The notes under the pieces: model-generated | The model's input: the letters and a program-made list of their open reading frames with translations, nothing else | What the model was told of the DNA's origin: nothing | Database searches by the model: none | IMG/VR virus record: IMGVR_UViG_2541047835_000006 | Source of the DNA: a virus | Taxonomy: Duplodnaviria > Heunggongvirae > Uroviricota > Caudoviricetes | Length of the DNA: 32,535 nucleotides | Reading direction: 5' to 3' (one strand) | Program-made: the position numbers and the translations under genes | Part shown: positions 1 to 23,722 of the stretch, in pieces | Position numbering within the stretch: the first letter of the stretch is position 1 | How the letters are laid out: every line of letters starts with the position of its first letter

Positions 1-501
1 TTCTCCCAAACCAAGGTTTTTGACAAAGAGCGCCGGGTCAGGAATATCAGCGCCGTTCTGGTCTTTGGCCAGCTTTTCCGCCAGCTTGTTCAACACAGTG
101 GTCGCAAAATTCGGATCGTTGCCGAGGGCATCAGCCAGCTCTTTGAGCGTATCCAGCGTCTCAGGGGCGCTGCCTGCAAGCGCCGCAAGTGCTTTGGCCA
201 CAAACTCCGTCGTCGCCAGCTTCTTGCTGTTATCGCTATTTGCAGGCGTAGGCGCTGTTGGTGTGCCGGTGAATGTCGGGCTGGCTTTCGGTGCGTACTG
301 GGTATGCGGGTCTGCTGCCGCGATATGTTTCGCAAGGTCAGAACCGCCTTTTTCAACCTGTTGCTTCAGGTACAGCGTGCGGCTGGCCAGTTGTTTACCC
401 TGACGGTTAGAAATTCCGTCAGGCCCGCCCAGAACGGGGTCAGAGACCTCAATCTGGTAGATGCCTTCTTCCCACTGCGGGGTTTCAGGTAGGTTTGCCA
501 T
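1..501 (-). CDS. Tail fibre protein, N-terminal 167 codons (gene continues beyond window start)
   Basis: Minus-strand frame open from ATG 501..499 to position 1; translation MANLPETPQWEEGIYQIEVSDPV...DPHTQYAPKASPTFTGTPTAPTP...LKELADALGNDPNFATT matches conserved tail-fibre N-terminal motifs; start 2 nt after the upstream stop. Not in ORF track because no stop in window. Confidence 0.7.
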   Translation of the reverse strand, partial: MANLPETPQWEEGIYQIEVSDPVLGGPDGISNRQGKQLASRTLYLKQQVEKGGSDLAKHIAAADPHTQYAPKASPTFTGTPTAPTPANSDNSKKLATTEFVAKALAALAGSAPETLDTLKELADALGNDPNFATTVLNKLAEKLAKDQNGADIPDPALFVKNLGLGE

Positions 502-5336: not shown

Positions 5337-7801
5337 CAGCTGTACCTCCTGCGTTGTTGCTGAGCCAGCAGACGCTCCAGCATTTTCTCCAGCTCATGCA
5401 GGCTCATATTCAGTGCGCCGGTCAACCCGTCAGGCGCTGCGGTTTCTTTGCCATTGAGGAAAAACTGAGGATTAAAGCTGACCTGGATACCGCCAGATGT
5501 TCCGCTGCCAGTTGCAGCTGCGCCACGACCTGAATATCCCGCCGCCATGATTTCCGGCGACGGGATACGGGGAACATCCGGTGTCATTTCAGTGGCCAGA
5601 CGCTGCCCGGCCAGTGCAGCAAGTGGTGTGGTGCGCTGCAGGCCGATAGCGGCCCCCTGCGCAATGTTGTCACCAAAGCCAATAAACACACGGCTCGGCG
5701 AATGAATGCCCAGCTTTTCCTTAAACCAGCCGCCAACACTGTCGCCCATGTCTGTGACGGTAGTTTTGAGCGACTCCCATTTGTTTTTGATGCCGTTTAT
5801 TAACCCGTCGATAAGATGGCCACCGAAGTCGGTGAACTTCGCTGGCAGATCAACACCGAGGTATTTCAGCGCAGCCGCAAAGGCTTTATAGAGCAGACCA
5901 ACCGGCGACCAGTTAATCAGCAGCTTACCAATCCCCACGACACCGCCATTAAACGCCTCTTTAATGTCAGCCCAGCGCTGTTTAAACCAGCTACTGACTG
6001 CGCCCCAGTTGCGATAAATAAGGTAAGCTGCTGCCGCGACGGCGGTGATGGCGAGACCAATGGGATTCATCAGCAGCGCCCGGCCAATCCAGAGAACGGC
6101 CCGCCCGGCGATCATAATGCCGCGAACCAGCCCACCTGACAGTACACCACCCAGTGTTCTGGCTCCTCTGGCGACGGCGCTGAAGCCGGTCACCAGCCAG
6201 CGGAGCTTACCGCCTTCACCGAGTGCAAGCGACAGTCGAAGCCAGTTGGCCCGCAGTAAAACGGCATTTTTCCAGACGTTAACAAAGGGGGAAATAAGGA
6301 GATTCAGCCCCAGCTTGAGACCGATAGTGGCCATCTTGAAAGCGAGTAATGCTCCTACAACCTTTATGGTGCCGCTGACGATTTGCGGGTTTGCCGCTAT
6401 CCATTTGCCGACACTGTCCATTAAAGGAATAAAAGTCTCACCCAGTTGGATCAAGGCCGGGCGTAGTGACTCACCAATGCTGATGGCTGCCTCGTTAAAA
6501 CCAATCTGAGTTCTGCGCCAACGACCTTCGAGCGTATTATTTTGTTTTGCAGCATCCTTATCCAGCGTAGACATTGCTGACGGGGTATTCATTTCCTGCT
6601 TGCTGGAAAGGTATTTATCCCAGCCCTGACGCATTGACAGTAAATGGTTAACGGTCTGAATATCAGTGAAGACTTCTGCCAGACCAAATGACTCCATTAG
6701 CTTCTGCTGGCCTTCCTGATCGCCTCTTGAGCCTGCTGCTTTCCATTGCTGTAAAAACGCCTTACCTTTACCGTCGATAAAACGGTTGGCAATCATCAGT
6801 GAGGCTTCATACTGTGAGAAGCCCTGAGCGACGTAATTCTGCATTGACCCCTGGTAATCCACCCCGGCTTTAGCATATTTCTGGATGGTATCTCCGCGCC
6901 CCATCGCCGCCAGCCAGTTTGACATATTGGTGACGGCCTCTTCCGCTGAGCCGCTGCCTTTACCAACTTCCAGACTGGCGACGATCTGGGTTATGGCATC
7001 TTTGCCGTAAATACCACGTGCAGCGAAGGCTTTGGCCATACCAGGTAACGCTTTCGCCATATCCTTCAGTTCAAACGAGCCTAGCTTAGCCCCGGTTGCC
7101 GCAATCCCAAACGCCTGCTCCAGCTCTTTCGCATCGGTAATTTTCAGCGCATCGCTAAAGGCGTAGGTCATTTTTGCGAGGTCAGTCATATCCGCTTTGG
7201 TGGCCGTGGCCGCTTTACCGAGCATCCCGGCAAATTTAGCTGCCTGCTCCGGGTTCATACCATCGGCAACTAACTGACCAACACCCCCTAGCAGCGACTC
7301 CTGGAGCTGATTGACCTGAAGGGATGCCCGACGAATGGCAGTACCGATGGCCTGTTCCTGCCTTGAATCCAGATCACCAGTGACACTGATATCCCGCAAC
7401 TGCGATTCAAACGAGGCATATTGTTTGACTGAGGCCATGACCGGTGCACCCAGTGTTCTGACGATGGCATAGGTTTCTGCTCCCTGGCCATAGAGCGCCA
7501 TGCGGTTAGCTTTCAGCGCGTCACTGGTGGTTGATACTGCTGACAAACGGCGCTGCTGGCGCTCAATTTGCTCCATTGTGCGGCTTACCCGCAGCAGGTC
7601 GCTGTTGAGGCGCTGCATCCGGGAAGAACCCAACTGACCATAGCGTTCTGTTGCACGGGTTAAGGCGTTTTGGCGTTCCTGCAGGCGGCGCGATGTATCG
7701 CCCAGGGAATCAAGGGCGCGTCGGGTACCGCTGACGGCTGAGCGGAAGCTGCTCCCGACAATGCCGCCAATAATGACGCCGACTGAAAATTTACTGGCCA
7801 C
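5336..7801 (-). CDS. Tail tape measure protein
   Basis: 821 aa, largest tail gene, Ala/Gly-rich with hydrophobic C-terminal segments; GTG start at 7801 preceded by AGAGGA SD. Confidence 0.85.
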   Translation of the reverse strand: MASKFSVGVIIGGIVGSSFRSAVSGTRRALDSLGDTSRRLQERQNALTRATERYGQLGSSRMQRLNSDLLRVSRTMEQIERQQRRLSAVSTTSDALKANRMALYGQGAETYAIVRTLGAPVMASVKQYASFESQLRDISVTGDLDSRQEQAIGTAIRRASLQVNQLQESLLGGVGQLVADGMNPEQAAKFAGMLGKAATATKADMTDLAKMTYAFSDALKITDAKELEQAFGIAATGAKLGSFELKDMAKALPGMAKAFAARGIYGKDAITQIVASLEVGKGSGSAEEAVTNMSNWLAAMGRGDTIQKYAKAGVDYQGSMQNYVAQGFSQYEASLMIANRFIDGKGKAFLQQWKAAGSRGDQEGQQKLMESFGLAEVFTDIQTVNHLLSMRQGWDKYLSSKQEMNTPSAMSTLDKDAAKQNNTLEGRWRRTQIGFNEAAISIGESLRPALIQLGETFIPLMDSVGKWIAANPQIVSGTIKVVGALLAFKMATIGLKLGLNLLISPFVNVWKNAVLLRANWLRLSLALGEGGKLRWLVTGFSAVARGARTLGGVLSGGLVRGIMIAGRAVLWIGRALLMNPIGLAITAVAAAAYLIYRNWGAVSSWFKQRWADIKEAFNGGVVGIGKLLINWSPVGLLYKAFAAALKYLGVDLPAKFTDFGGHLIDGLINGIKNKWESLKTTVTDMGDSVGGWFKEKLGIHSPSRVFIGFGDNIAQGAAIGLQRTTPLAALAGQRLATEMTPDVPRIPSPEIMAAGYSGRGAAATGSGTSGGIQVSFNPQFFLNGKETAAPDGLTGALNMSLHELEKMLERLLAQQQRRRYS

Positions 7802-7893
7802 GGTGGTTATCCTCTGAAAGCGGAAAAACGGAAGGAAAATGTCTGAGAGCCATGCAGAACAGCCGCGAGTAGCGGCTGTTAAGTGATGAGGTG

Positions 7894-8151
7894 TTAATGA
7901 TTATCGCCGAACTCGCTTCTGATTTGCTCTTCAGCCTGCTCCAGCCACATCTCCAGATCGTCAGTATCGAGGGCATCAATCTCCCCCGGCTGAAATCTAA
8001 ACCACCTCGCCAGCAGCCCCTGCGCCTGCATCAGCGTTTTCGTCGCTCTTGCCCAGCCCAGTGACTTGCTGAAATCGTTTCTGCAGCTCCATGTAGTCGG
8101 CAAGATCCATATTATCGAGGTCTTCCGGAAGAATACCGGTGCTACGGGCAA
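7894..8151 (-). CDS. Overlapping ORF in +1/-2 frame; candidate frameshift extension (E'-like) of the tail chaperone
   Basis: Part overlapping E looks like out-of-frame junk (R/W/C-rich) but the ~35 codons past the E stop are protein-like and acidic (PGEIDALDTDDLEMWLEQAEEQIRSEFGDNH); slippery site not identified. Confidence 0.4.
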   Translation of the reverse strand: MPVAPVFFRKTSIIWILPTTWSCRNDFSKSLGWARATKTLMQAQGLLARWFRFQPGEIDALDTDDLEMWLEQAEEQIRSEFGDNH

Positions 8152-8311
8152 TCAGCGGCTCGTCCCAGTCAGCCGGGTCTTTACTGATTTTGCGCACCTG
8201 CTTCAGGTCTTTGACCGTCAGGCGTTTCAGTTCAACCTGCTCAACTCTGGTGCCAGCAGCGGTGGTGAAGGGGTAAGACAGCTTAAAAGTATCGGATTGG
8301 GTTTGTGACAT
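7997..8311 (-). CDS. Tail assembly chaperone (P2 gpE-like)
   Basis: 104 aa, between tube and tape measure; LKRLTVKDLKQV and DNMDLADYMELQKRF segments resemble gpE. Confidence 0.6.
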   Translation of the reverse strand: MSQTQSDTFKLSYPFTTAAGTRVEQVELKRLTVKDLKQVRKISKDPADWDEPLIARSTGILPEDLDNMDLADYMELQKRFQQVTGLGKSDENADAGAGAAGEVV

Positions 8312-8378
8312 GATCGTGCTCCTGTGTAAGTTCAGAGCAGTATGTCTGGTGGTGGGACTGGCAGATATTAAAGGGGAT

Positions 8379-8403
8379 TAAGAAGAAAGGGGCCGAAGCC
8401 CCT
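8379..8403 (-). terminator. Intrinsic terminator-like hairpin with U-tract on minus strand
   Basis: Minus-strand AGGGGC-TTCG-GCCCCT followed by TTTCTTCTT, starting 6 nt after the stop of the 8410..8694 ORF. Confidence 0.5.
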
Positions 8404-8409
8404 GTGATA

Positions 8410-8694
8410 TCAGTGAGTGCGAAAGCCTTTGCAGTTACGCAGGAAGGCGATAAGAAGTACCTTTCCTTCAGATTTGCCGATGCCGGTGAACCAGTGGTCA
8501 GGTGGCTCCCATGCCTCAATCAGGTCAGCGAGCTTTCGTGCTTTGGAGCGTGTGCAGTCAATCGGGTCATTGGTTTTCTGGGTATTAAAAAGGTTTTCCA
8601 CCCCTGAAATATCAAGGATGGTAAACCACGTACCATTCCCCATCATGCCAATCGAACCACAGTTCCCGCCTTTATCTTCAATCTCGACGGTCAC
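8410..8694 (-). CDS. Hypothetical protein (moron inserted between tail tube and tail chaperone genes)
   Basis: 94-codon ORF with GTG start; visibly lower GC than flanking tail genes; own downstream terminator; no recognised motif. Confidence 0.4.
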   Translation of the reverse strand: MTVEIEDKGGNCGSIGMMGNGTWFTILDISGVENLFNTQKTNDPIDCTRSKARKLADLIEAWEPPDHWFTGIGKSEGKVLLIAFLRNCKGFRTH

Positions 8695-8696
8695 CG

Positions 8697-9218
8697 TCAG
8701 CCCCCGATGTTGATGCGGTAGTCGGTCAACTGGTCAATGCCGCCGACGCGGAAGATGTTGGCCAGATAGTCCAGCTCCAGCAACTCTTCACCATCCAGTA
8801 CCTGCTTGATGTACGTGCAGGTGAAGCTACTGGAGAACTCGGCGTTCTCATGCTGTTTGAACGTCCCCAGCGGGTTCTTCTTAAACATGATCGTCAGGAA
8901 AGTGACCAGCGGAATTTCGTCAATCAGCCCCTGCGAGCTGTAGCGCTGAACGCTGGAACGGCACTGCAGCGCCAGCGACTTATACGGGTTCGCGGCAGAC
9001 AGCATCGCGTCGCGGTAAAAGCTGTTCCACTTGATCTCGCCCTCAAGCTTGTCGAAGCCAGCAGGGAGTTCCACCTTGCCCACCATCCCCAACGCCTTAT
9101 GCTCCTGCATGGTCATGGAGACGTCAGGCAGTTTGACCTCCTCGGCCCGGCCCAGCAGGTTAGCGCCATCCAAGTAGATGTTGGCATTCGTGATGCGGTT
9201 GATCTCAATCTTTGCCAT
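8697..9218 (-). CDS. Tail tube protein (FII / Mu M-like)
   Basis: 173 aa; C-terminus ...ANIFRVGGIDQLTDYRINIGG resembles P2 FII C-terminus; ATG overlaps sheath stop (ATGA). Confidence 0.8.
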   Translation of the reverse strand: MAKIEINRITNANIYLDGANLLGRAEEVKLPDVSMTMQEHKALGMVGKVELPAGFDKLEGEIKWNSFYRDAMLSAANPYKSLALQCRSSVQRYSSQGLIDEIPLVTFLTIMFKKNPLGTFKQHENAEFSSSFTCTYIKQVLDGEELLELDYLANIFRVGGIDQLTDYRINIGG

Positions 9219-19637: not shown

Positions 19638-20287
19638 TTCTGTAATCCTTCCCGTTCGTCCAGCAGCCCGTTTATCTGGCTGCGCCAGATGCGGCACTGC
19701 TTCGCGTTGTCGATGATGTTGGCGAGAACATCACGCTGGGAGACGCCTGAGTTGCGTAGCCAGGCGTCAGCGGCTTCAGGTTGCCCGGACGCTGCGCCAG
19801 TGCCGGTGCCAGCGGCGGCAGTTGCGTCTGAATGACCGGTGTCGACGGATGCGTTGTCATATCCGAGCGCGGCGTTGTACTGGCGCACGAAACCGCGAGT
19901 AAACACGCACTCAATGGGATGGCTCTTACCTTTTTCATCAATCCAGCGCTGTGTGACATCGTTAATTTGCCCCTGTAGTTGTTTGTTCTGGCTCTCCAGT
20001 TGAGCAATCTGCTCAAGGTAACTGGCTTCAGCCTGCTGCCCGGCGGCTACCTGTTCCTGATACCGTTTCGCCCAAGCCCGCAACGCAGCGTTCTCAAGCG
20101 TTGCCTGCTCCGTTTTGTACGTGTCGAATGCTGACTGCAACTCACTGACCGCCTTATCGCCGTCGCGCGTGGCGTTTTCATGCCCGCTTTTGTAGCCCAG
20201 GTAATAAAGCCCAATCAGAAAAGCATTTATGACCACCGCCAGCAGCAGACTGCGCCACGGCAGATTTTTTAGCAGGTTAGTCCACAC
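19634..20287 (-). CDS. Rz-like i-spanin (N-terminal TM + coiled coil)
   Basis: GTG 20287 overlapping endolysin stop; TM SLLLAVVINAFLIGLYYLGY then coiled-coil-like segment; contains embedded lipoprotein ORF. Confidence 0.45.
   Translation of the reverse strand: MWTNLLKNLPWRSLLLAVVINAFLIGLYYLGYKSGHENATRDGDKAVSELQSAFDTYKTEQATLENAALRAWAKRYQEQVAAGQQAEASYLEQIAQLESQNKQLQGQINDVTQRWIDEKGKSHPIECVFTRGFVRQYNAALGYDNASVDTGHSDATAAAGTGTGAASGQPEAADAWLRNSGVSQRDVLANIIDNAKQCRIWRSQINGLLDEREGLQK
19672..19938 (-). CDS. Rz1-like o-spanin lipoprotein embedded in +1 frame of Rz-like gene
   Basis: MKKVRAIPLSACLLAVSC lipobox followed by Pro-rich mature region. Confidence 0.45.
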   Translation of the reverse strand: MKKVRAIPLSACLLAVSCASTTPRSDMTTHPSTPVIQTQLPPLAPALAQRPGNLKPLTPGYATQASPSVMFSPTSSTTRSSAASGAAR

Positions 20288-21014
20288 AGCTGCCGCCTCC
20301 CCAGGTGAGATAACGCGGGGCCAGTTCGTGCAGGATGCGCTGCGGATAATGACGGTTCTCCCGCCAGTTGGCAGTGCTGCGTCCGGCATTCACCGTGGCG
20401 ACATGACCAAACCAGCGGGTGCTGTCCAGCCCCTGCTGCGAGGCCAGCCGTTTGTCCCGCTGTACCCAGCCCAGACCACCGTTATAGCCTGACAGCGTCA
20501 TGGCCATACGCTCGCAGTCATTGACGGCGCTGACGCGTTGCCACAGCCAGCGGTCATAGCTGACCAGCGCCCGGATGGCCCAAGACGGATTAAACGGTTC
20601 ACGGCTGTTAAGCCCCGGCATCAGCTGACTTATCCAGTCAGCGGTGGTGGGCATAAACTGCGCCAGTCCCTGAGCGCCAACCGGCGAGACCGCATCAGGT
20701 CGCCAGCCGCTTTCCTGATGCAGCTGCGCGGCGAAGTCGGCCACCGGCGCAGACATTCCCCATTCAAGCCGGGCATTACGGATCACATCGTCGCGATACT
20801 GCAGCGCGGTCTGCGGTGGCTGGGCAGCGCGGGCCTGACTGAAGAAGCCGCCACACCAGAGCAGCCAGGCTACCGTTACTGAACCAAAGAGCTGCCACCA
20901 GAAACTGTGCTTACCCGTTCGGGCCTGCCCGTGGCGGGCCAGTTCGATGCCCAGCCCCAGCAGTACCAGCACGGCCCAGACAACCTGAGGCCAGTACATA
21001 TAGAGGGTCATCAT
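20277..21014 (-). CDS. Endolysin, lytic transglycosylase (SLT domain) with N-terminal TM/signal-anchor
   Basis: 245 aa; SLT signature ...LHQESGWRPDAVSPVGAQGLAQFMPTTA...; hydrophobic N-terminus (VVWAVLVLLGLGI). Confidence 0.8.
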   Translation of the reverse strand: MMTLYMYWPQVVWAVLVLLGLGIELARHGQARTGKHSFWWQLFGSVTVAWLLWCGGFFSQARAAQPPQTALQYRDDVIRNARLEWGMSAPVADFAAQLHQESGWRPDAVSPVGAQGLAQFMPTTADWISQLMPGLNSREPFNPSWAIRALVSYDRWLWQRVSAVNDCERMAMTLSGYNGGLGWVQRDKRLASQQGLDSTRWFGHVATVNAGRSTANWRENRHYPQRILHELAPRYLTWGGGSCVD

Positions 21015-21364: not shown

Positions 21365-21611
21365 GAGCGTCTCCTTGTGTAGTGGAGACAGCATCACAAA
21401 TGGTCGGGGAAAGGGATTTTAAACAGCGTTAATAGTGAGGATGCAGACGTGAACCGCATGATGGCTTTGAAAGAACGACCAGCCCGGTGCGGTAACACCA
21501 GGCTGGTCATCAACCCACAGGTATGCACTGTGAGCCGACCAGGGTTCAGTCAGTCTCGCGAGACCAGACTAGCCTGCCATATTTTCATTGATTGCAAAAG
21601 GCTTACGGATA
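21365..21611. promoter_or_regulatory. Divergent control region for late operon (minus) and methyltransferase (plus) with two palindromes
   Basis: Imperfect 32-bp dyad GACCAGCC-N16-GGCTGGTC at 21477..21508 and perfect 12-bp palindrome GTCTCGCGAGAC at 21553..21564; minus-strand -10-like TAAAAT at 21416..21421 lacking a good -35. Confidence 0.4.
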
Positions 21612-22382
21612 ATGAAAGAACAATCTTTACCCATCGTCCCATGGATTGGCGGTAAACGTCGTCTGGCGAAGCATATTTTACCATTGTTTCCGGCCCATAC
21701 CTGCTATGTGGAGCCATTCTGCGGGGCAGCTGCGCTCTATTTCCTAAAGACGCCCAGCAAGACCGAAGTCATTAACGATATCAACGGGGAACTGGTGAAC
21801 CTCTATCGGGTGGTCAAGCATCATCTGGAAGAATTTATTCGCCAGTTCAAATGGGCGCTGGTCAGCCGTCAGATTTACAAATGGTTGCAGGATACGCCGG
21901 AAGAAACGCTCACCGACATTCAGCGGGCGGCCCGGTTCTACTACCTGCAGAAACAGGCATTTGGCGGCAAGGTCGCCGATCACACATTCGGTACCTCTAC
22001 AACCAGTGCGCCGCGCTTCAATTTGCTGCGTATTGAGGAAGAACTGTCGATGGCACACCTGCGCCTGTCGAGAACGCTGATAGAGCATCTGGACTGGCAC
22101 CAGTGCATAGAGCGATATGATCGCCCGCATACGCTGTTCTACTGTGACCCACCGTACTGGGGAACGGAAGGCTATGGTGTGGAGTTCGGGCTGGAAAACT
22201 ATGATCACATGGCAGATTTAGCGCGAAGGATCAAAGGGAAGATGATTATATCAGTGAACGATATCCCGGAAATGCGGCAGGTATTCAACGGTCTGAACAT
22301 GCAGTCGGTTGATATCAGCTACAACCTTAAGGTAACAGGCAAACCCAGCCCGAAGAAAGAGCTGGTAATTTGTAATTTTTGA
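21612..22382 (+). CDS. DNA N6-adenine methyltransferase, Dam family (orphan; no restriction partner seen)
   Basis: Motifs PWIGGK (cf. Dam KWAGGK), EPFCGAAALYF, and catalytic YCDPPYWGT (DPPY); ATG 21612 preferred over upstream TTG 21588. Confidence 0.85.
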   Translation: MKEQSLPIVPWIGGKRRLAKHILPLFPAHTCYVEPFCGAAALYFLKTPSKTEVINDINGELVNLYRVVKHHLEEFIRQFKWALVSRQIYKWLQDTPEETLTDIQRAARFYYLQKQAFGGKVADHTFGTSTTSAPRFNLLRIEEELSMAHLRLSRTLIEHLDWHQCIERYDRPHTLFYCDPPYWGTEGYGVEFGLENYDHMADLARRIKGKMIISVNDIPEMRQVFNGLNMQSVDISYNLKVTGKPSPKKELVICNF

Positions 22383-22395
22383 AAGAGGTAGTTAA

Positions 22396-22423
22396 AGGTG
22401 GTGGTGCATCTGCAGCACCACCT
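22396..22423. terminator. Hairpin between convergent methyltransferase and lipoprotein genes (candidate bidirectional terminator)
   Basis: AGGTGGTG...CACCACCT 8-bp stem plus inner 3-bp stem, loop ATCT; flanking U-tracts imperfect. Confidence 0.4.
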
Positions 22424-22429
22424 AAACAT

Positions 22430-22957
22430 TTAATCCTGCCTTGGACAAGTCCAATAATCATTATCTGGCTCTGGTGAATAAGCTTTCAAACAACCTGCTC
22501 GCGGGGGCTTACCATCATCTGTCATAGGAACTTTTTCCTTATCAAGTTTCACGGTCAGGTCTCCACCAGGAACATCCGTTTTATCGAAAAAAACAGCCTG
22601 ACATGCTGATTTAGATATTTTCACTTCGTGGGCATTATTTGATATGAACAAATAACAATTATGACCAGAGGCTATGTAGTCACTTGGAATATTATTTTCG
22701 TCTTTAATATGAAACTGCACCGTTGTCACCGGGCGTTCTCTATCCTCGGATACTTCGACTTTTTCAAAACTGTCCGCGTACTTATCCAGGCCGGGGAGTT
22801 GTTGGCGAATAAACGGTAATTCGCGATTTACAACCGGATTATCTGTTTCAACGCTAAAAACCGCGTGCTCCTTAGCTGTGGTGGACGTATCAGCAGGATC
22901 GGTATTATCTCCACACCCAGATAAAACAAATATCAACGGTAAAAATAATTTGCGCAT
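22430..22957 (-). CDS. Lipoprotein of unknown function, low-GC, directly downstream of repressor
   Basis: MRKLFLPLIFVLSGC signal peptide with lipobox; AAGGA SD; visibly AT-richer than the prophage backbone; 41-bp gap after repressor stop. Confidence 0.6.
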   Translation of the reverse strand: MRKLFLPLIFVLSGCGDNTDPADTSTTAKEHAVFSVETDNPVVNRELPFIRQQLPGLDKYADSFEKVEVSEDRERPVTTVQFHIKDENNIPSDYIASGHNCYLFISNNAHEVKISKSACQAVFFDKTDVPGGDLTVKLDKEKVPMTDDGKPPRAGCLKAYSPEPDNDYWTCPRQD

Positions 22958-22998
22958 AGTCATGTCCTTATACCTCTAATGTTCTTAATAGGAACAGA

Positions 22999-23409
22999 TT
23001 AACCCGTATTTTTTAATCTTTCGAACGCTGCGGACAGCTCCTTAAGCTGTTTTTCCATATCAATCATTCGCTGTTTTTCCTCAGCGCCTCGCAGCAACTC
23101 TTTTCGCACCTCTGGCTCCAGTTGATTGAGCAGCTCCAATAACTTCAGATCAGACTGGTTGAAATGCTGCTCCTGATTAGCTGGCTGTGCTTTCTCTACC
23201 CCAACAGCTTCCCCTTTACCAGTAAGTAGCCAATCTATTGATATGTTCAAATGGGTGCTTAGCGCAACAAGAGCCTCTGCATTAGGTTCTCTCTCTCCAC
23301 GCAGATAGTTTTGAAGTGAGCGATATGGAATTTTTGACAAGTCTGACAATGCCTTAATTGTCAGACCCTTAGCATCCATCGCTTCGCGCAATCTCTCTTT
23401 TATACTCAT
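22999..23409 (-). CDS. Prophage repressor, XRE-family HTH with C-terminal coiled coil
   Basis: Start at ATG 23409 (MSIKERLREAMDAKGLTIKALSDLSKIPYRSLQNYLRGEREP...); divergent from early operon. Confidence 0.75.
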   Translation of the reverse strand: MSIKERLREAMDAKGLTIKALSDLSKIPYRSLQNYLRGEREPNAEALVALSTHLNISIDWLLTGKGEAVGVEKAQPANQEQHFNQSDLKLLELLNQLEPEVRKELLRGAEEKQRMIDMEKQLKELSAAFERLKNTG

Positions 23410-23425
23410 TTGAACATATCTCAAT

Positions 23426-23453
23426 TTGACATACCCGTTTGGGTGCGTACAAT
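23426..23453 (+). promoter_or_regulatory. Early promoter (sigma70-like) for ner-like/transposase operon
   Basis: TTGACA (23426..23431), 16-bp spacer, TACAAT (23448..23453); followed by repeated ACCCAA(T/C)AG motifs at ~23454 and ~23474 that may be operator sites. Confidence 0.55.
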
Positions 23454-23497
23454 AGACCCAATAGAGTACATCATAACCCAACAGGAACACGGTGCAT

Positions 23498-23722
23498 ATG
23501 AACAAACAACAAGTTCGGGCACGGCTGGTTGAAAGAGGCAGTAGCTTGCGCCAGTTCGCGCTTAACGCGGGCTATGAGCCACGAACAGTCACCCAGGCTG
23601 TCAGCCGCTGGGCAGGCAAAAGCGAACTTCCACGCGGTCGTTTGACTTATCGGATTTTGCGAGACCTTTCGGTCGCAATAGGCAAAGAAGTTACCCCCGG
23701 CATCCTCAAGGAGGCGTCATGA
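23498..23722 (+). CDS. Ner-like/Cro-like early DNA-binding regulator
   Basis: 74 aa; segment GSSLRQFALNAGYEPRTVTQAV resembles Ner/Nlp HTH; first gene of early operon, divergent from repressor. Confidence 0.6.
   Translation: MNKQQVRARLVERGSSLRQFALNAGYEPRTVTQAVSRWAGKSELPRGRLTYRILRDLSVAIGKEVTPGILKEAS

Follow-up and report, generated by a model that had tools for sequence, protein, structure and literature searches.

What does a small lipoprotein gene do directly behind the repressor of a transposable prophage? The window analysed here, a stretch of DNA of 32,535 nucleotides, is a Bcepmuvirus-like (BcepMu-like) transposable prophage of E. coli, and the original prediction proposed that a gene of this kind is co-transcribed with an XRE-type repressor in the lysogen and serves superinfection exclusion or lysogenic conversion. 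No paper on the lipoprotein gene or on the cargo of E. coli BcepMu-like prophages was found in the literature. The reading that we favour, and hold with moderate confidence, is that the gene may encode a lysogen-expressed periplasmic exclusion factor that acts after adsorption.

The lipoprotein gene occupies positions 22430..22963 of the minus strand and encodes 177 amino acids from the first ATG or 175 amino acids from the ATG at 22957, the latter length being that of the product with the start MRKLF used by PGAP. A profile search returned 186 family clusters (50% identity) at E <= 1e-3, 37 close homologues were found, and dN/dS is 0.14-0.20 in distant comparisons, i.e., the gene is under purifying selection; it is thus a real gene. 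Bacterial lipoproteins, the substrates of signal peptidase II, are recognized by a positively charged n-region, a hydrophobic h-region and a lipobox [LVI][ASTVI][GAS]C, and the N-terminus of the window protein, MTMRK-LFLPLIFV-LSGC17, has all three: the n-region MTMRK, a hydrophobic core and the lipobox L-S-G-C17 (residues 1-17 in total, with the Cys17 codon at 22913-22915), so that lipidation is predicted. The lipobox is kept throughout 20 homologues, where G16 and C17 are invariant and L14 is nearly so. The signal peptide is followed by a disordered tether (residues 18-32) and a folded domain (residues 33-177), the core of which has pLDDT > 90 in the AF2 model. The mature part contains cysteines 103, 121, 158 and 173, the last two in the tail, and the lipobox, the length of ~175 residues and the several mature cysteines that were originally noted are therefore confirmed. 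Cys103 and Cys121 are near-invariant in the family and invariant among the 20 homologues aligned. Two further family positions, Cys56 and Cys125, co-occur (both in 108 of 140 sequences, neither in 20 and one only in 12), and such joint presence or absence is typical of an extracytoplasmic disulfide; disulfides are likely in the window lipoprotein as well. Under the E. coli Lol sorting rule, a lipoprotein goes to the outer membrane unless the residue at +2, next to the lipid-modified cysteine, is Asp. The window protein has Gly18 at +2 (Asp stands at +3), and a flexible linker of ~15 residues most probably ties it to the outer membrane. As Asp at +2 does occur in a few members of the family, and anchoring by transmembrane helices in many, this predicted location may differ within the family.

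The neighbourhood of the gene suggests when it would be expressed. Directly upstream, on the same strand, is the gene of a 136-aa XRE/CI-type repressor (22999..23409, minus strand; HTH_3 E 3e-12, Phage_CI_repr E 2e-6), which also matches PHROG transcriptional repressors and is divergent from the Ner-like/early transposase operon. The reported distance of 41 bp is correct if counted from the ATG at 22957 and is 35 nt from the ATG at 22963. Neither terminator-like nor promoter-like sites were seen in a scan of this gap and of the repressor 3' end. The scan of the window also located no promoter for the repressor, and no internal promoter for the lipoprotein was seen at 9/12 or better; the sole minus-strand promoter-like site (22489-22460) falls within the 3'-terminal part of the lipoprotein gene, and sites of this kind are no more numerous than chance would give. 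On the opposite strand, a near-consensus sigma-70 promoter-like site (23426..23453, plus strand; TTGACA-16-TACAAT, 11/12) reads into a Ner/Cro-like small HTH gene (23492..23722, plus strand; phrog_8503 E 5e-35, with weak HTH_35 and phrog_769 repressor matches), which is the first gene of the early operon, and this site marks the divergent immunity switch. We infer from the sequence that the repressor and lipoprotein genes form one transcription unit, with the lipoprotein gene in the promoter-distal place. In phage lambda, rexAB are co-transcribed with cI. The 35 nt between the two genes (22964..22998, minus strand) form a conserved repressor-cargo junction (alignments A6 and A7), which holds the ribosome-binding region. 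A perfect palindrome, TGTTC-N7-GAACA (22980-22996), has its only perfect copy of the window here; it was considered as an operator and dropped, there being one perfect copy and near-matches at chance level. An explanation by a non-coding RNA was also dropped because an Rfam search gave nothing at E <= 1.

Downstream of the lipoprotein gene is the convergent gene of a Dam-type N6-adenine methyltransferase (21612..22382, plus strand; MethyltransfD12 E 1e-27). The 47-nt spacer between the two stop codons contains a GC-rich hairpin (~22400-22422; dG -19.6/-23.6 kcal/mol per strand, z -2.75/-3.6), so the hairpin said to be shared by these genes does exist, but it differs from a canonical intrinsic terminator: a U-run is missing from both strands, and it went uncalled in the terminator scan. 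Every lipoprotein allele examined has a GC-rich hairpin 3' of it, with differing sequences, and the hairpin is possibly a bidirectional 3'-end structure. The lipoprotein gene is also AT-richer than the prophage backbone, as had been stated (41.8% GC against 55.9% over the whole window); its GC3 is 34.8%, that of the Dam and transposase genes is 61-64%, and the repressor gene has 44.5% GC.

Searches with the lipoprotein in Pfam (E <= 0.01), NCBIfam and PADLOC returned zero matches, the PADLOC-DB 2.0 defence models gave 0 families for the lipoprotein and the distant members tested, and all fold matches in PDB and BFVD searches with the lipoprotein were below significance. The statement that the protein belongs to no recognized family thus stands for these collections, but the protein is not an orphan. 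Its residues 27-134 match positions 215-321 of phrog_10002, a family of unknown function (E 3e-14), and by this profile evidence it is a member of a wide uncharacterized phage-borne family equivalent to the C-terminal domain of phrog_10002. The match covers that domain only: the phrog_10002 proteins are ~320 aa long and have a cytoplasmic N-terminal domain and a transmembrane helix, whereas the window protein lacks the N-terminal domain and is predicted to be the lipid-anchored periplasmic domain alone. The family motifs ('CPGLxKY') PGLxKY, IP..Y.A.GH.C and K..C are conserved in the window protein together with C103 and C121. Each family member is a lipoprotein or has a signal peptide or transmembrane helix as its anchor. 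The family is found in transposable and P2-like phages of numerous proteobacteria, in phages of Hydrogenophaga, Desulfobulbus and Tepidimonas, and in metagenomes. A tblastn search with the lipoprotein against 50,697 phage records found only two near-identical prophage-type records, and tblastn with distant family members against deposited phage genomes gave back only the two E. coli-type records. Nothing was found in viral contigs scanned with the family members P0095 and P0049, and a single scan of genome contigs with the degenerate motif WPK..CPGL[DN]KY gave two loci, one of which was too short to inform.

In all transposable-phage copies examined, even those of 29-35% identity, the gene sits 3' of the repressor and shares its strand. 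This is true of enterobacterial homologues (Yersinia, Morganella, Serratia/Klebsiella; 44-52% identity), which are directly behind the repressor, of a second lineage of 12 IMG/VR contigs with transposases 55-57% identical, and of a Mu-like metagenomic contig, where the family gene follows an S24 repressor; the copy in a P2-like prophage adjoins the immunity switch. In the Desulfobulbus locus, a 180-aa upstream open reading frame looks HTH-like by eye and has no Pfam match; it was not counted as a repressor. Given that the gene trails the repressor in every transposable-phage context examined, expression in the lysogen together with the repressor is the simplest reading. Related and apparently intact prophages without the lipoprotein gene also exist. 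Of the features expected of a lysogeny-expressed accessory gene, or moron, which include a transcript in lysogens, the sequence shows the same strand, close spacing, a signal-free gap and dispensability, and the position is conserved as well; the gene resembles an old, though dispensable, resident of the immunity region more than a sporadic moron.

The slot behind the repressor is variable. In E. coli relatives it is occupied by an NA37/YejK-like gene and a 401-aa gene, and the same junction, 22964..22998, stands before this alternative cargo. The pair matches the NCBIfam models DS1_1 and DS1_2 (E 7e-18 and 6e-21, short of the curated cut-offs) and can be regarded as distant homologues of the two-gene system DS-1 (DefensePredictor; NF053868/NF053869), an experimentally validated defence system with a YejK domain (PMC13092281). 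In two prophages the repressor, the lipoprotein and the DS-1-like pair are found in tandem, and a remnant of the 3' end of a second repressor is a record of cassette exchange. The window itself has no DS-1-like cassette, and neither of the DS-1 proteins is related to the lipoprotein. Among related prophages the proteins of the flanking genes share 84-97% identity, whereas identity is 44-52% for the lipoprotein and its mature domain, with dN of 0.37-0.45 against 0.02-0.12 in the neighbours. The divergence starts within the gene: nucleotide identity is 78-95% in the signal peptide and junction and ~50% in the mature domain, and the identity profile drops to ~50% from about 22860 to 22330, so that the Dam gene forms the left border of the slot with its last ~60 nt inside the divergent, swapped block. 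The folded domain is swapped by recombination. Close alleles show dN/dS of 0.82 in the lipoprotein against 0-0.16 in the neighbours, based on few substitutions; in distant comparisons dN and dS are both elevated, and old alleles exchanged by recombination fit this equally well as positive selection does.

According to the reading that we favour, the ORF 22430-22963 would give rise to a secreted, lipid-anchored and disulfide-bonded protein of ~160 mature residues that faces the periplasm and is made whenever the repressor is made, i.e., in the lysogen. It would provide superinfection exclusion or defence in the periplasm after receptor recognition, by interfering with the incoming tail tip, the tape-measure, the ejection conduit or cell-wall penetration, an action akin to that of Ltp, P22 SieA and T4 Sp and not to receptor masking for the phage's own fibres. 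We infer both the exclusion function and the blocked step from genomic comparisons: exclusion is favoured by the slot shared with DS-1 homologues, by the hypervariable swapped domain, whose divergence we read as a mark of an arms race, and by the fusion to Ltp repeats in one family member, P0049. The predicted exclusion or conversion arrangement in the repressor region is borne out in part: the repressor-lipoprotein unit is conserved, relatives have distant DS-1 homologues in its slot, and a single family member is fused to Ltp-type domains.

A close parallel is Ltp of Streptococcus thermophilus phage TP-J34 (PF07553), likewise a prophage lipoprotein outside the cytoplasmic membrane and annotated as superinfection exclusion. 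The likeness comes through P0049, in which the family domain is followed by two PF07553 Lipoprotein_Ltp repeats (E 5.5e-28) that also match PHROG 'superinfection exclusion' families (E 1.7e-42); this fusion is 1 case among 32 long family members. The window protein differs from Ltp in that PF07553 is absent from it (Pfam, E <= 0.01), no relation of its fold to solved structures was detected, and it comes from a Gram-negative host, where it is probably tethered to the outer membrane. The HMM and structure searches against exclusion lipoproteins that had been suggested as a check thus gave no match for the window protein itself but did give one for a homologue. Another parallel is SieA of phage P22, a prophage-expressed exclusion protein that blocks DNA delivery across the envelope and whose sequence types are < 30% identical (PMC10883804). 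The allele types of the window lipoprotein are comparably divergent, but SieA is an integral inner-membrane protein, whereas the window protein is a predicted lipoprotein with a soluble periplasmic domain and has no homology to it. Rex and SieB of lambda, exclusion proteins encoded in the repressor region, have their site of action in or at the cytoplasm, in contrast to the predicted periplasmic location of the window protein, which is not homologous to them either.

Could the lipoprotein instead inactivate an outer membrane receptor from its periplasmic face and block phage adsorption, as proteins of the Cor/Llp type do? T5 Llp and Cor/mEpimmI Lpp are also small periplasm-facing phage lipoproteins that protect the cell: Llp, a periplasmic outer-membrane lipoprotein, jams FhuA (PMC9586334), and mEpimmI phage lipoproteins exclude phages by receptor type (PMC11893012). 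The Gly at +2, which predicts the outer membrane, fits this idea, and the divergent allele types could follow different receptors. However, in four prophages the lipoprotein genes are 97.6-99.6% identical, whereas the fibre tips share no more than 30-40% identity, and one fibre segment of the phage, with two tips, is invertible; lipoprotein alleles and tail-fibre tips are not coupled. This argues against blocking of the phage's own receptor, and the analogy with Cor/Llp drawn in the original prediction is disfavoured in this respect. The genes of Llp, Cor and the mEpimmI lipoproteins adjoin receptor-binding or structural genes (the mEpimmI ones are inside the structural gene cluster) and match the receptor of the phage, while the window gene is behind the repressor, ~23 kb away from the fibre genes. 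In addition, no sequence or fold similarity to Llp, Cor/mEpimmI Lpp or any solved chain was found in the searches with the lipoprotein, and many family members are anchored by transmembrane helices, i.e., in the inner membrane. A receptor of other phages could still be blocked, but on the whole we consider receptor jamming rather unlikely.

Lysogenic conversion with a benefit to the host that is independent of phages, such as serum or stress resistance or an altered envelope of the Bor/Iss kind, is also rather improbable. Lambda Bor is an envelope lipoprotein, the gene arrangement suggests expression in the lysogen, and the gene is AT-rich and dispensable, being missing from related prophages. 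Neither Lambda_Bor nor any other Pfam family matches the lipoprotein at E <= 0.01, however, and the protein family is found in phages of environmental bacteria and not just of animal-associated hosts. The slot is one that homologues of a defence system also use, and a hypervariable domain that is swapped is more in keeping with conflict than with a housekeeping benefit.

The second lineage raises the question whether the domain has a partner. Its 12 contigs have the order repressor, 196-aa protein, family lipoprotein, 137-aa membrane protein; the 196-aa protein consists of a cytoplasmic N-terminal domain and a transmembrane helix, and the C-terminus of the repressor shares the motif FHG..GQ.AGG.I.N with the N-termini of both membrane proteins. 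The family members P0055, P0095 and P0112 unite all three parts, N-terminal domain, transmembrane helix and family domain, in a single protein (E 1e-13 to 3e-22), which is the layout of phrog_10002. In BcepMu, the type phage of the genus, gp18, directly behind the repressor gp17, is a membrane protein of the same architecture, which matches weakly (E 0.006) and whose periplasmic part is short and contains Cys; unlike the window protein, gp18 has no family domain, and gp19, a 178-aa protein in the same slot, was tested as a homologue and is unrelated. This pairing of the domain with a cytoplasmic-domain membrane protein hints at something beyond a simple periplasmic blocker. The lipoprotein could be the periplasmic sensor or effector of a repressor-linked transmembrane module, reporting envelope events, for instance attack by a superinfecting phage, to a cytoplasmic partner that acts on the lysogeny switch or an abortive response; the lineage of the window would keep the periplasmic half alone. 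We regard this as decidedly unlikely, since tblastn with the 196-aa protein found no partner in the window, the window repressor does not carry the motif, and an inner-membrane exclusion protein would fit the fused architecture equally. In its general form, the proposal would be that of an unrecognized module of transposable phages that couples envelope events to the lysogeny switch or an abortive response, made of the N-terminal domain with the repressor C-terminus motif, a transmembrane helix and a periplasmic disulfide domain. Its parts would form one protein in phrog_10002 and separate proteins in the second lineage, and the window would have the lipoprotein alone; such a module, which would do more than block entry, is conceivable but of low probability.

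A role as an immunity protein or inhibitor directed against a periplasmic toxin or enzyme (a bacteriocin, a T6SS effector, or the lytic transglycosylase of the phage itself or of an incoming one) is very unlikely. Small disulfide-bonded periplasmic lipoproteins are the usual format of immunity proteins and lysozyme inhibitors, and an SLT-type endolysin gene (20277-21014) is nearby, but every fold match was below significance, no locus examined has a toxin gene next to the lipoprotein, and blocking of an incoming tail lysozyme would be a form of the exclusion that we favour and not a separate explanation. Finally, it is hardly credible that the lipoprotein is a lysis accessory (o-spanin, antiholin or timing factor) of the adjacent holin/SLT cassette: Rz1-type outer-membrane lipoproteins do participate in lysis, the holin and SLT genes are on the same strand, and in the second lineage and E. 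coli A35 the lipoprotein gene immediately precedes the lysis genes and no Dam gene intervenes, but in the window the convergent Dam gene and the hairpin separate it from the holin gene, the cassette already has its own downstream membrane and lipoprotein genes, apparently intact relatives do without it, and a folded protein of 177 aa with no spanin match (Pfam, E <= 0.01) is unlike the small proline-rich Rz1.

If exclusion proved negative, the gene would be an ordinary prophage accessory gene. If exclusion is confirmed, a function would be assigned to a family of 186 clusters (50% identity) that has no Pfam, PDB or BFVD match, and the region behind the repressor in Bcepmuvirus-like prophages would be a defence hotspot, where recombination at the conserved junction exchanges one cargo, lipoprotein or DS-1-like pair, for another. 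With alleles that are not coupled to the fibre tips, the probable target would be a step after adsorption that phages share, and, if this is true, the protein would be a handle on the poorly understood way in which contractile-tailed phages cross the periplasm.

The lipoprotein gene of the original prediction (about 175 aa, with a lipobox) is found at positions 22430-22963 of the minus strand and encodes 177 aa, or 175 aa when translation begins at the second ATG, which is the start chosen by NCBI's pipeline in identical E. coli prophages. The N-terminus of its product, MTMRK-LFLPLIFV-LSGC17 with Gly at +2, reads as a textbook lipoprotein signal. The gene lies, as had been claimed, behind an XRE-type repressor gene on the same strand (22999-23409, minus strand, 136 aa; HTH_3, E 3e-12; Phage_CI_repr, E 2e-6), and the two are separated by 35 nt, or by the predicted 41 nt if the distance is counted to the second ATG. 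A consensus scan detected neither promoter-like nor terminator-like sites in this gap or at the 3' end of the repressor gene. A near-consensus promoter at 23426-23453 is divergent from the repressor and reads into a Ner-like gene, downstream of which are genes for an IclR-type HTH protein, a DUF3102 protein, an rve transposase and an ExeA/MuB-like ATPase. The lipoprotein gene is indeed AT-richer than the prophage: its GC content is 41.8% (GC3 35%), compared to 44.5% for the repressor gene and 55.9% for the window, and the GC3 of the Dam and transposase genes is 61-64%. The proposal that the gene ends at a hairpin shared with the convergent Dam gene (21612-22382) is confirmed, as is every other detail of the observation, with one caveat. 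The 47-nt spacer between the two stop codons does contain a GC-rich hairpin (-19.6 kcal/mol on one strand and -23.6 on the other; z -2.75 and -3.6), but it lacks a U-run, was not called by the terminator scan and does not qualify as a canonical intrinsic terminator. Within the 3'-terminal part of the lipoprotein gene (22460-22489, minus strand) there is a promoter-like site, TTGAAA-18-GATAAT (10/12), directed to Dam; it is probably meaningless, because such sites occur in this region at chance level.

The window can be assigned to a Bcepmuvirus-type transposable prophage. Its transposase shares 98% identity with its counterpart in Escherichia phage PhiKM, classed by GenBank as a Bcepmuvirus, 69% with those of BcepMu/phiE255 and 57% with those of Pseudomonas B3-like phages. 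Escherichia phage Phi06_2974 B matches the region at 99.8% identity. A second record, titled Klebsiella phage KP12 clone KP12_2 (OM835952.1; loci L001 and L035), matches at 98.5% over the region compared, yet it is classed under Vequintavirinae. Rather than belonging to a Vequintavirinae genome, it probably represents a prophage that was co-assembled or induced. Of 5,426 complete E. coli genomes, 22 carry the lipoprotein gene. The prophage interrupts different genes in different E. coli genomes (gadC, the nrf cluster, the adi cluster), which is consistent with insertion by transposition.

The position of the gene is conserved far beyond these close relatives. Prophages of Yersinia intermedia, Morganella morganii and Serratia/Klebsiella encode homologues that are only 44-52% identical to the window protein and are nevertheless found on the same strand, about 36-41 nt directly behind a 136-aa repressor gene. 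In a second lineage of 12 IMG/VR contigs, with transposases 55-57% and lipoproteins 32-40% identical to those of the window, the order is a Ner-like gene on the opposite strand, the XRE repressor, a 196-aa membrane protein, the family lipoprotein, a 137-aa membrane protein (present in most of the 12 contigs) and lysis genes. A family member follows an HTH-S24 repressor and a 221-aa protein in a Mu-like metagenomic contig, and another adjoins Cro-like and repressor-like genes in a Hydrogenophaga P2-like prophage. In BcepMu, the gene directly behind repressor gp17 encodes a membrane protein, gp18. The second lineage (L021 3973-5793; L022-L032) also carries the motif FHG..GQ.AGG.I.N(Y)G in three proteins: the XRE repressor has it C-terminally, and the 196-aa and 137-aa membrane proteins on either side of the lipoprotein have it N-terminally. 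A similar N-terminal repeat occurs in gp18 of BcepMu. The common motif is a hint that the repressor may interact with the membrane proteins.

The place behind the repressor gene accepts different cargo. Sister E. coli prophages carry there, instead of the lipoprotein gene, genes for an NA37/YejK-like protein and a 401-aa protein, and this cassette is present in 19 of 5,426 E. coli genomes. Sister prophages with such a pair in this slot include L003 (1734-3949), L004 (1739-3954) and L020 (1687-3923). The two proteins match the NCBIfam antiphage models DS1_1 and DS1_2 (E 7e-18 and 6e-21), with scores well under the curated cut-offs, and are therefore distant homologues, not equivalogs, of DS-1, a validated defence system that includes a YejK domain (PMC13092281). 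The 401-aa protein also has a weak KwaA match (E 8e-4). It is possible that the pair represents a divergent form of DS-1 that travels with transposable prophages. In one E. coli prophage the slot is filled by an unrelated ORF of 88 aa, and in two prophages (Yersinia L005, with the cassette at 6732-8947, and E. coli A35) the repressor, the lipoprotein, the NA37 gene and its partner are arranged in tandem. The 35-nt junction behind the repressor gene is the same ahead of both the lipoprotein and the DS-1-like cargo and includes a perfect palindrome, TGTTC-N7-GAACA (22980-22996), which lies just past the repressor stop codon, is the sole perfect copy in the window and might form a small RNA stem, bind a protein or mark a site of recombination. 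In L005 (6600-6735), the lipoprotein cassette and the NA37 gene are separated by a remnant of about 60 nt from a second repressor allele, corresponding to its 3' end and accompanied by the conserved junction. It resembles the scar that a cassette exchange would leave if recombination took place at the end of the repressor gene. The spacing, the signal-free gap and the conservation of both junction and position make it likely that the lipoprotein gene is transcribed together with the repressor in the lysogen. The intergenic region between the holin and Dam genes, empty in the window (21398-21611, 214 nt), is a second variable slot that contains a DUF2441 gene, a pair of 247-aa and 71-aa genes or a 182-aa gene in sister prophages (L001 5335-5901, L002 2351-2917, L016 1943-2955, L017 2240-2788) and may be another accessory hotspot.

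Divergence between the loci is concentrated in the lipoprotein gene. When the window is compared with the Morganella and Serratia loci, identity is 78-95% over the final ~100 nt of the repressor gene, the junction and the start of the lipoprotein gene. It drops to about 50% from ~22860 onwards, past the hairpin and into the terminal ~60 nt of Dam, and returns to 75-90% within Dam. Flanking proteins are 84-97% identical in loci whose lipoproteins are 44-52% identical. The dN of the lipoprotein gene is 0.37-0.45 versus 0.02-0.12 for its neighbours, and its dS is also higher; its dN/dS is 0.14-0.20, and it therefore encodes a functional protein. Among close alleles, dN/dS is 0.82 versus 0-0.16 for the neighbours, a value that comes from about a dozen substitutions. 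The divergence between the distant loci is consistent with old allele types shuffled by recombination, as described for the sieA types of P22 (PMC10883804).

The original prediction recognised no family for the protein, and Pfam, NCBIfam and PADLOC indeed gave no match, but the protein does belong to a broad family, itself uncharacterised. Its single match in PHROGs is phrog_10002 (function unknown; E 3e-14, C-terminal third only). A word-indexed search returned 37 homologues, from Enterobacterales only, and an exhaustive profile search returned 186 clusters at E <= 1e-3, 73 of them at E <= 1e-10. Most members are 130-190 aa long, use a lipobox, a signal peptide or a TM helix as their anchor, and have the motifs PGLxKY, IP..Y.A.GH.C and K..C.S.C-L-D in common. 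Cys103 and Cys121 are present in 136 and 135 of 140 representatives, respectively; Cys56 and Cys125 occur together in 108, are both missing in 20, and are found one without the other in 12. Members of the close group have either Cys or hydrophobic residues at both of these positions, with no mixed cases; in the window protein the two are Leu56 and Phe125, and its tail has an additional pair, Cys158/Cys173. This pattern supports an extracytoplasmic domain with two or three putative disulfides. The tail motif KPPR.GC...W.CP (window residues ~150-177) recurs in otherwise divergent alleles and in the TM-anchored 371-aa member P0043, is missing from alleles of 143-147 aa, and behaves as a separate, optional module. 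In an AlphaFold2 model built from a 20-sequence alignment (mean pLDDT 80.7, core >90), residues 1-31, i.e., the signal peptide and tether, are disordered; after them, a helix (43-61) packs against a beta-sheet. No significant structural relative emerged: Foldseek gave no match in PDB or BFVD at E <= 1e-3, a profile search of PDB sequences gave nothing under E 0.5, and no similarity to characterised exclusion proteins was found. Among 32 long members, only P0049 combines a TM anchor and the family domain with two Lipoprotein_Ltp repeats (E 5.5e-28), which also match PHROG 'superinfection exclusion' families (E 1.7e-42). P0055, P0095 and P0112 join a homologue of the cytoplasmic domain of the 196-aa protein (E 1e-13 to 3e-22) to a TM helix and the family domain, and this fused layout is that of phrog_10002. 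Overall, we consider the gene very likely to be expressed and to encode a lipoprotein from a family borne by phages, and we give about even chances to a role in protection against phage infection.

Two mechanisms for such protection can be weighed. The first is jamming of the receptor, by analogy with Cor/Llp, as had been suggested. The Llp of T5 locks FhuA from the periplasm (PMC9586334), and known receptor-jamming lipoproteins match the receptor of their phage (PMC9586334; PMC11893012); the Lpp types of mEpimmI track receptor type and are encoded within the structural gene cluster (PMC11893012), whereas the lipoprotein gene studied here is ~23 kb from the fibre genes. The window begins inside a tail-fibre gene (1-237, minus strand), and just outside its left end (L018 9179-12307) lies an invertible region similar to the Mu G segment, which encodes a Gin-type recombinase, two assembly proteins and a pair of alternative fibre tips. 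Fibre tips are extremely variable among otherwise near-identical prophages. In four prophages with lipoprotein genes 97.6-99.6% identical, the N-terminal parts of the fibres are 88-98% identical and the last 100 residues only ~30-40% identical, and the alternative tips differ too. The lipoprotein allele is thus not co-inherited with the phage's own receptor specificity, which lowers the Cor/Llp reading and favours a target common to many phages or unrelated to fibre specificity. Alternatively, the lipoprotein may act after adsorption, in the periplasm, where the candidate target would be the passage of the tail tip or of a DNA conduit, and we favour such a block over receptor jamming.

The repressor-lipoprotein arrangement resembles the classical one of lambda cI-rexAB, but the lipoprotein itself is uncharacterised. 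What is new is therefore not the arrangement but the lipoprotein that occupies it, and its gene is a well-defined exclusion candidate.
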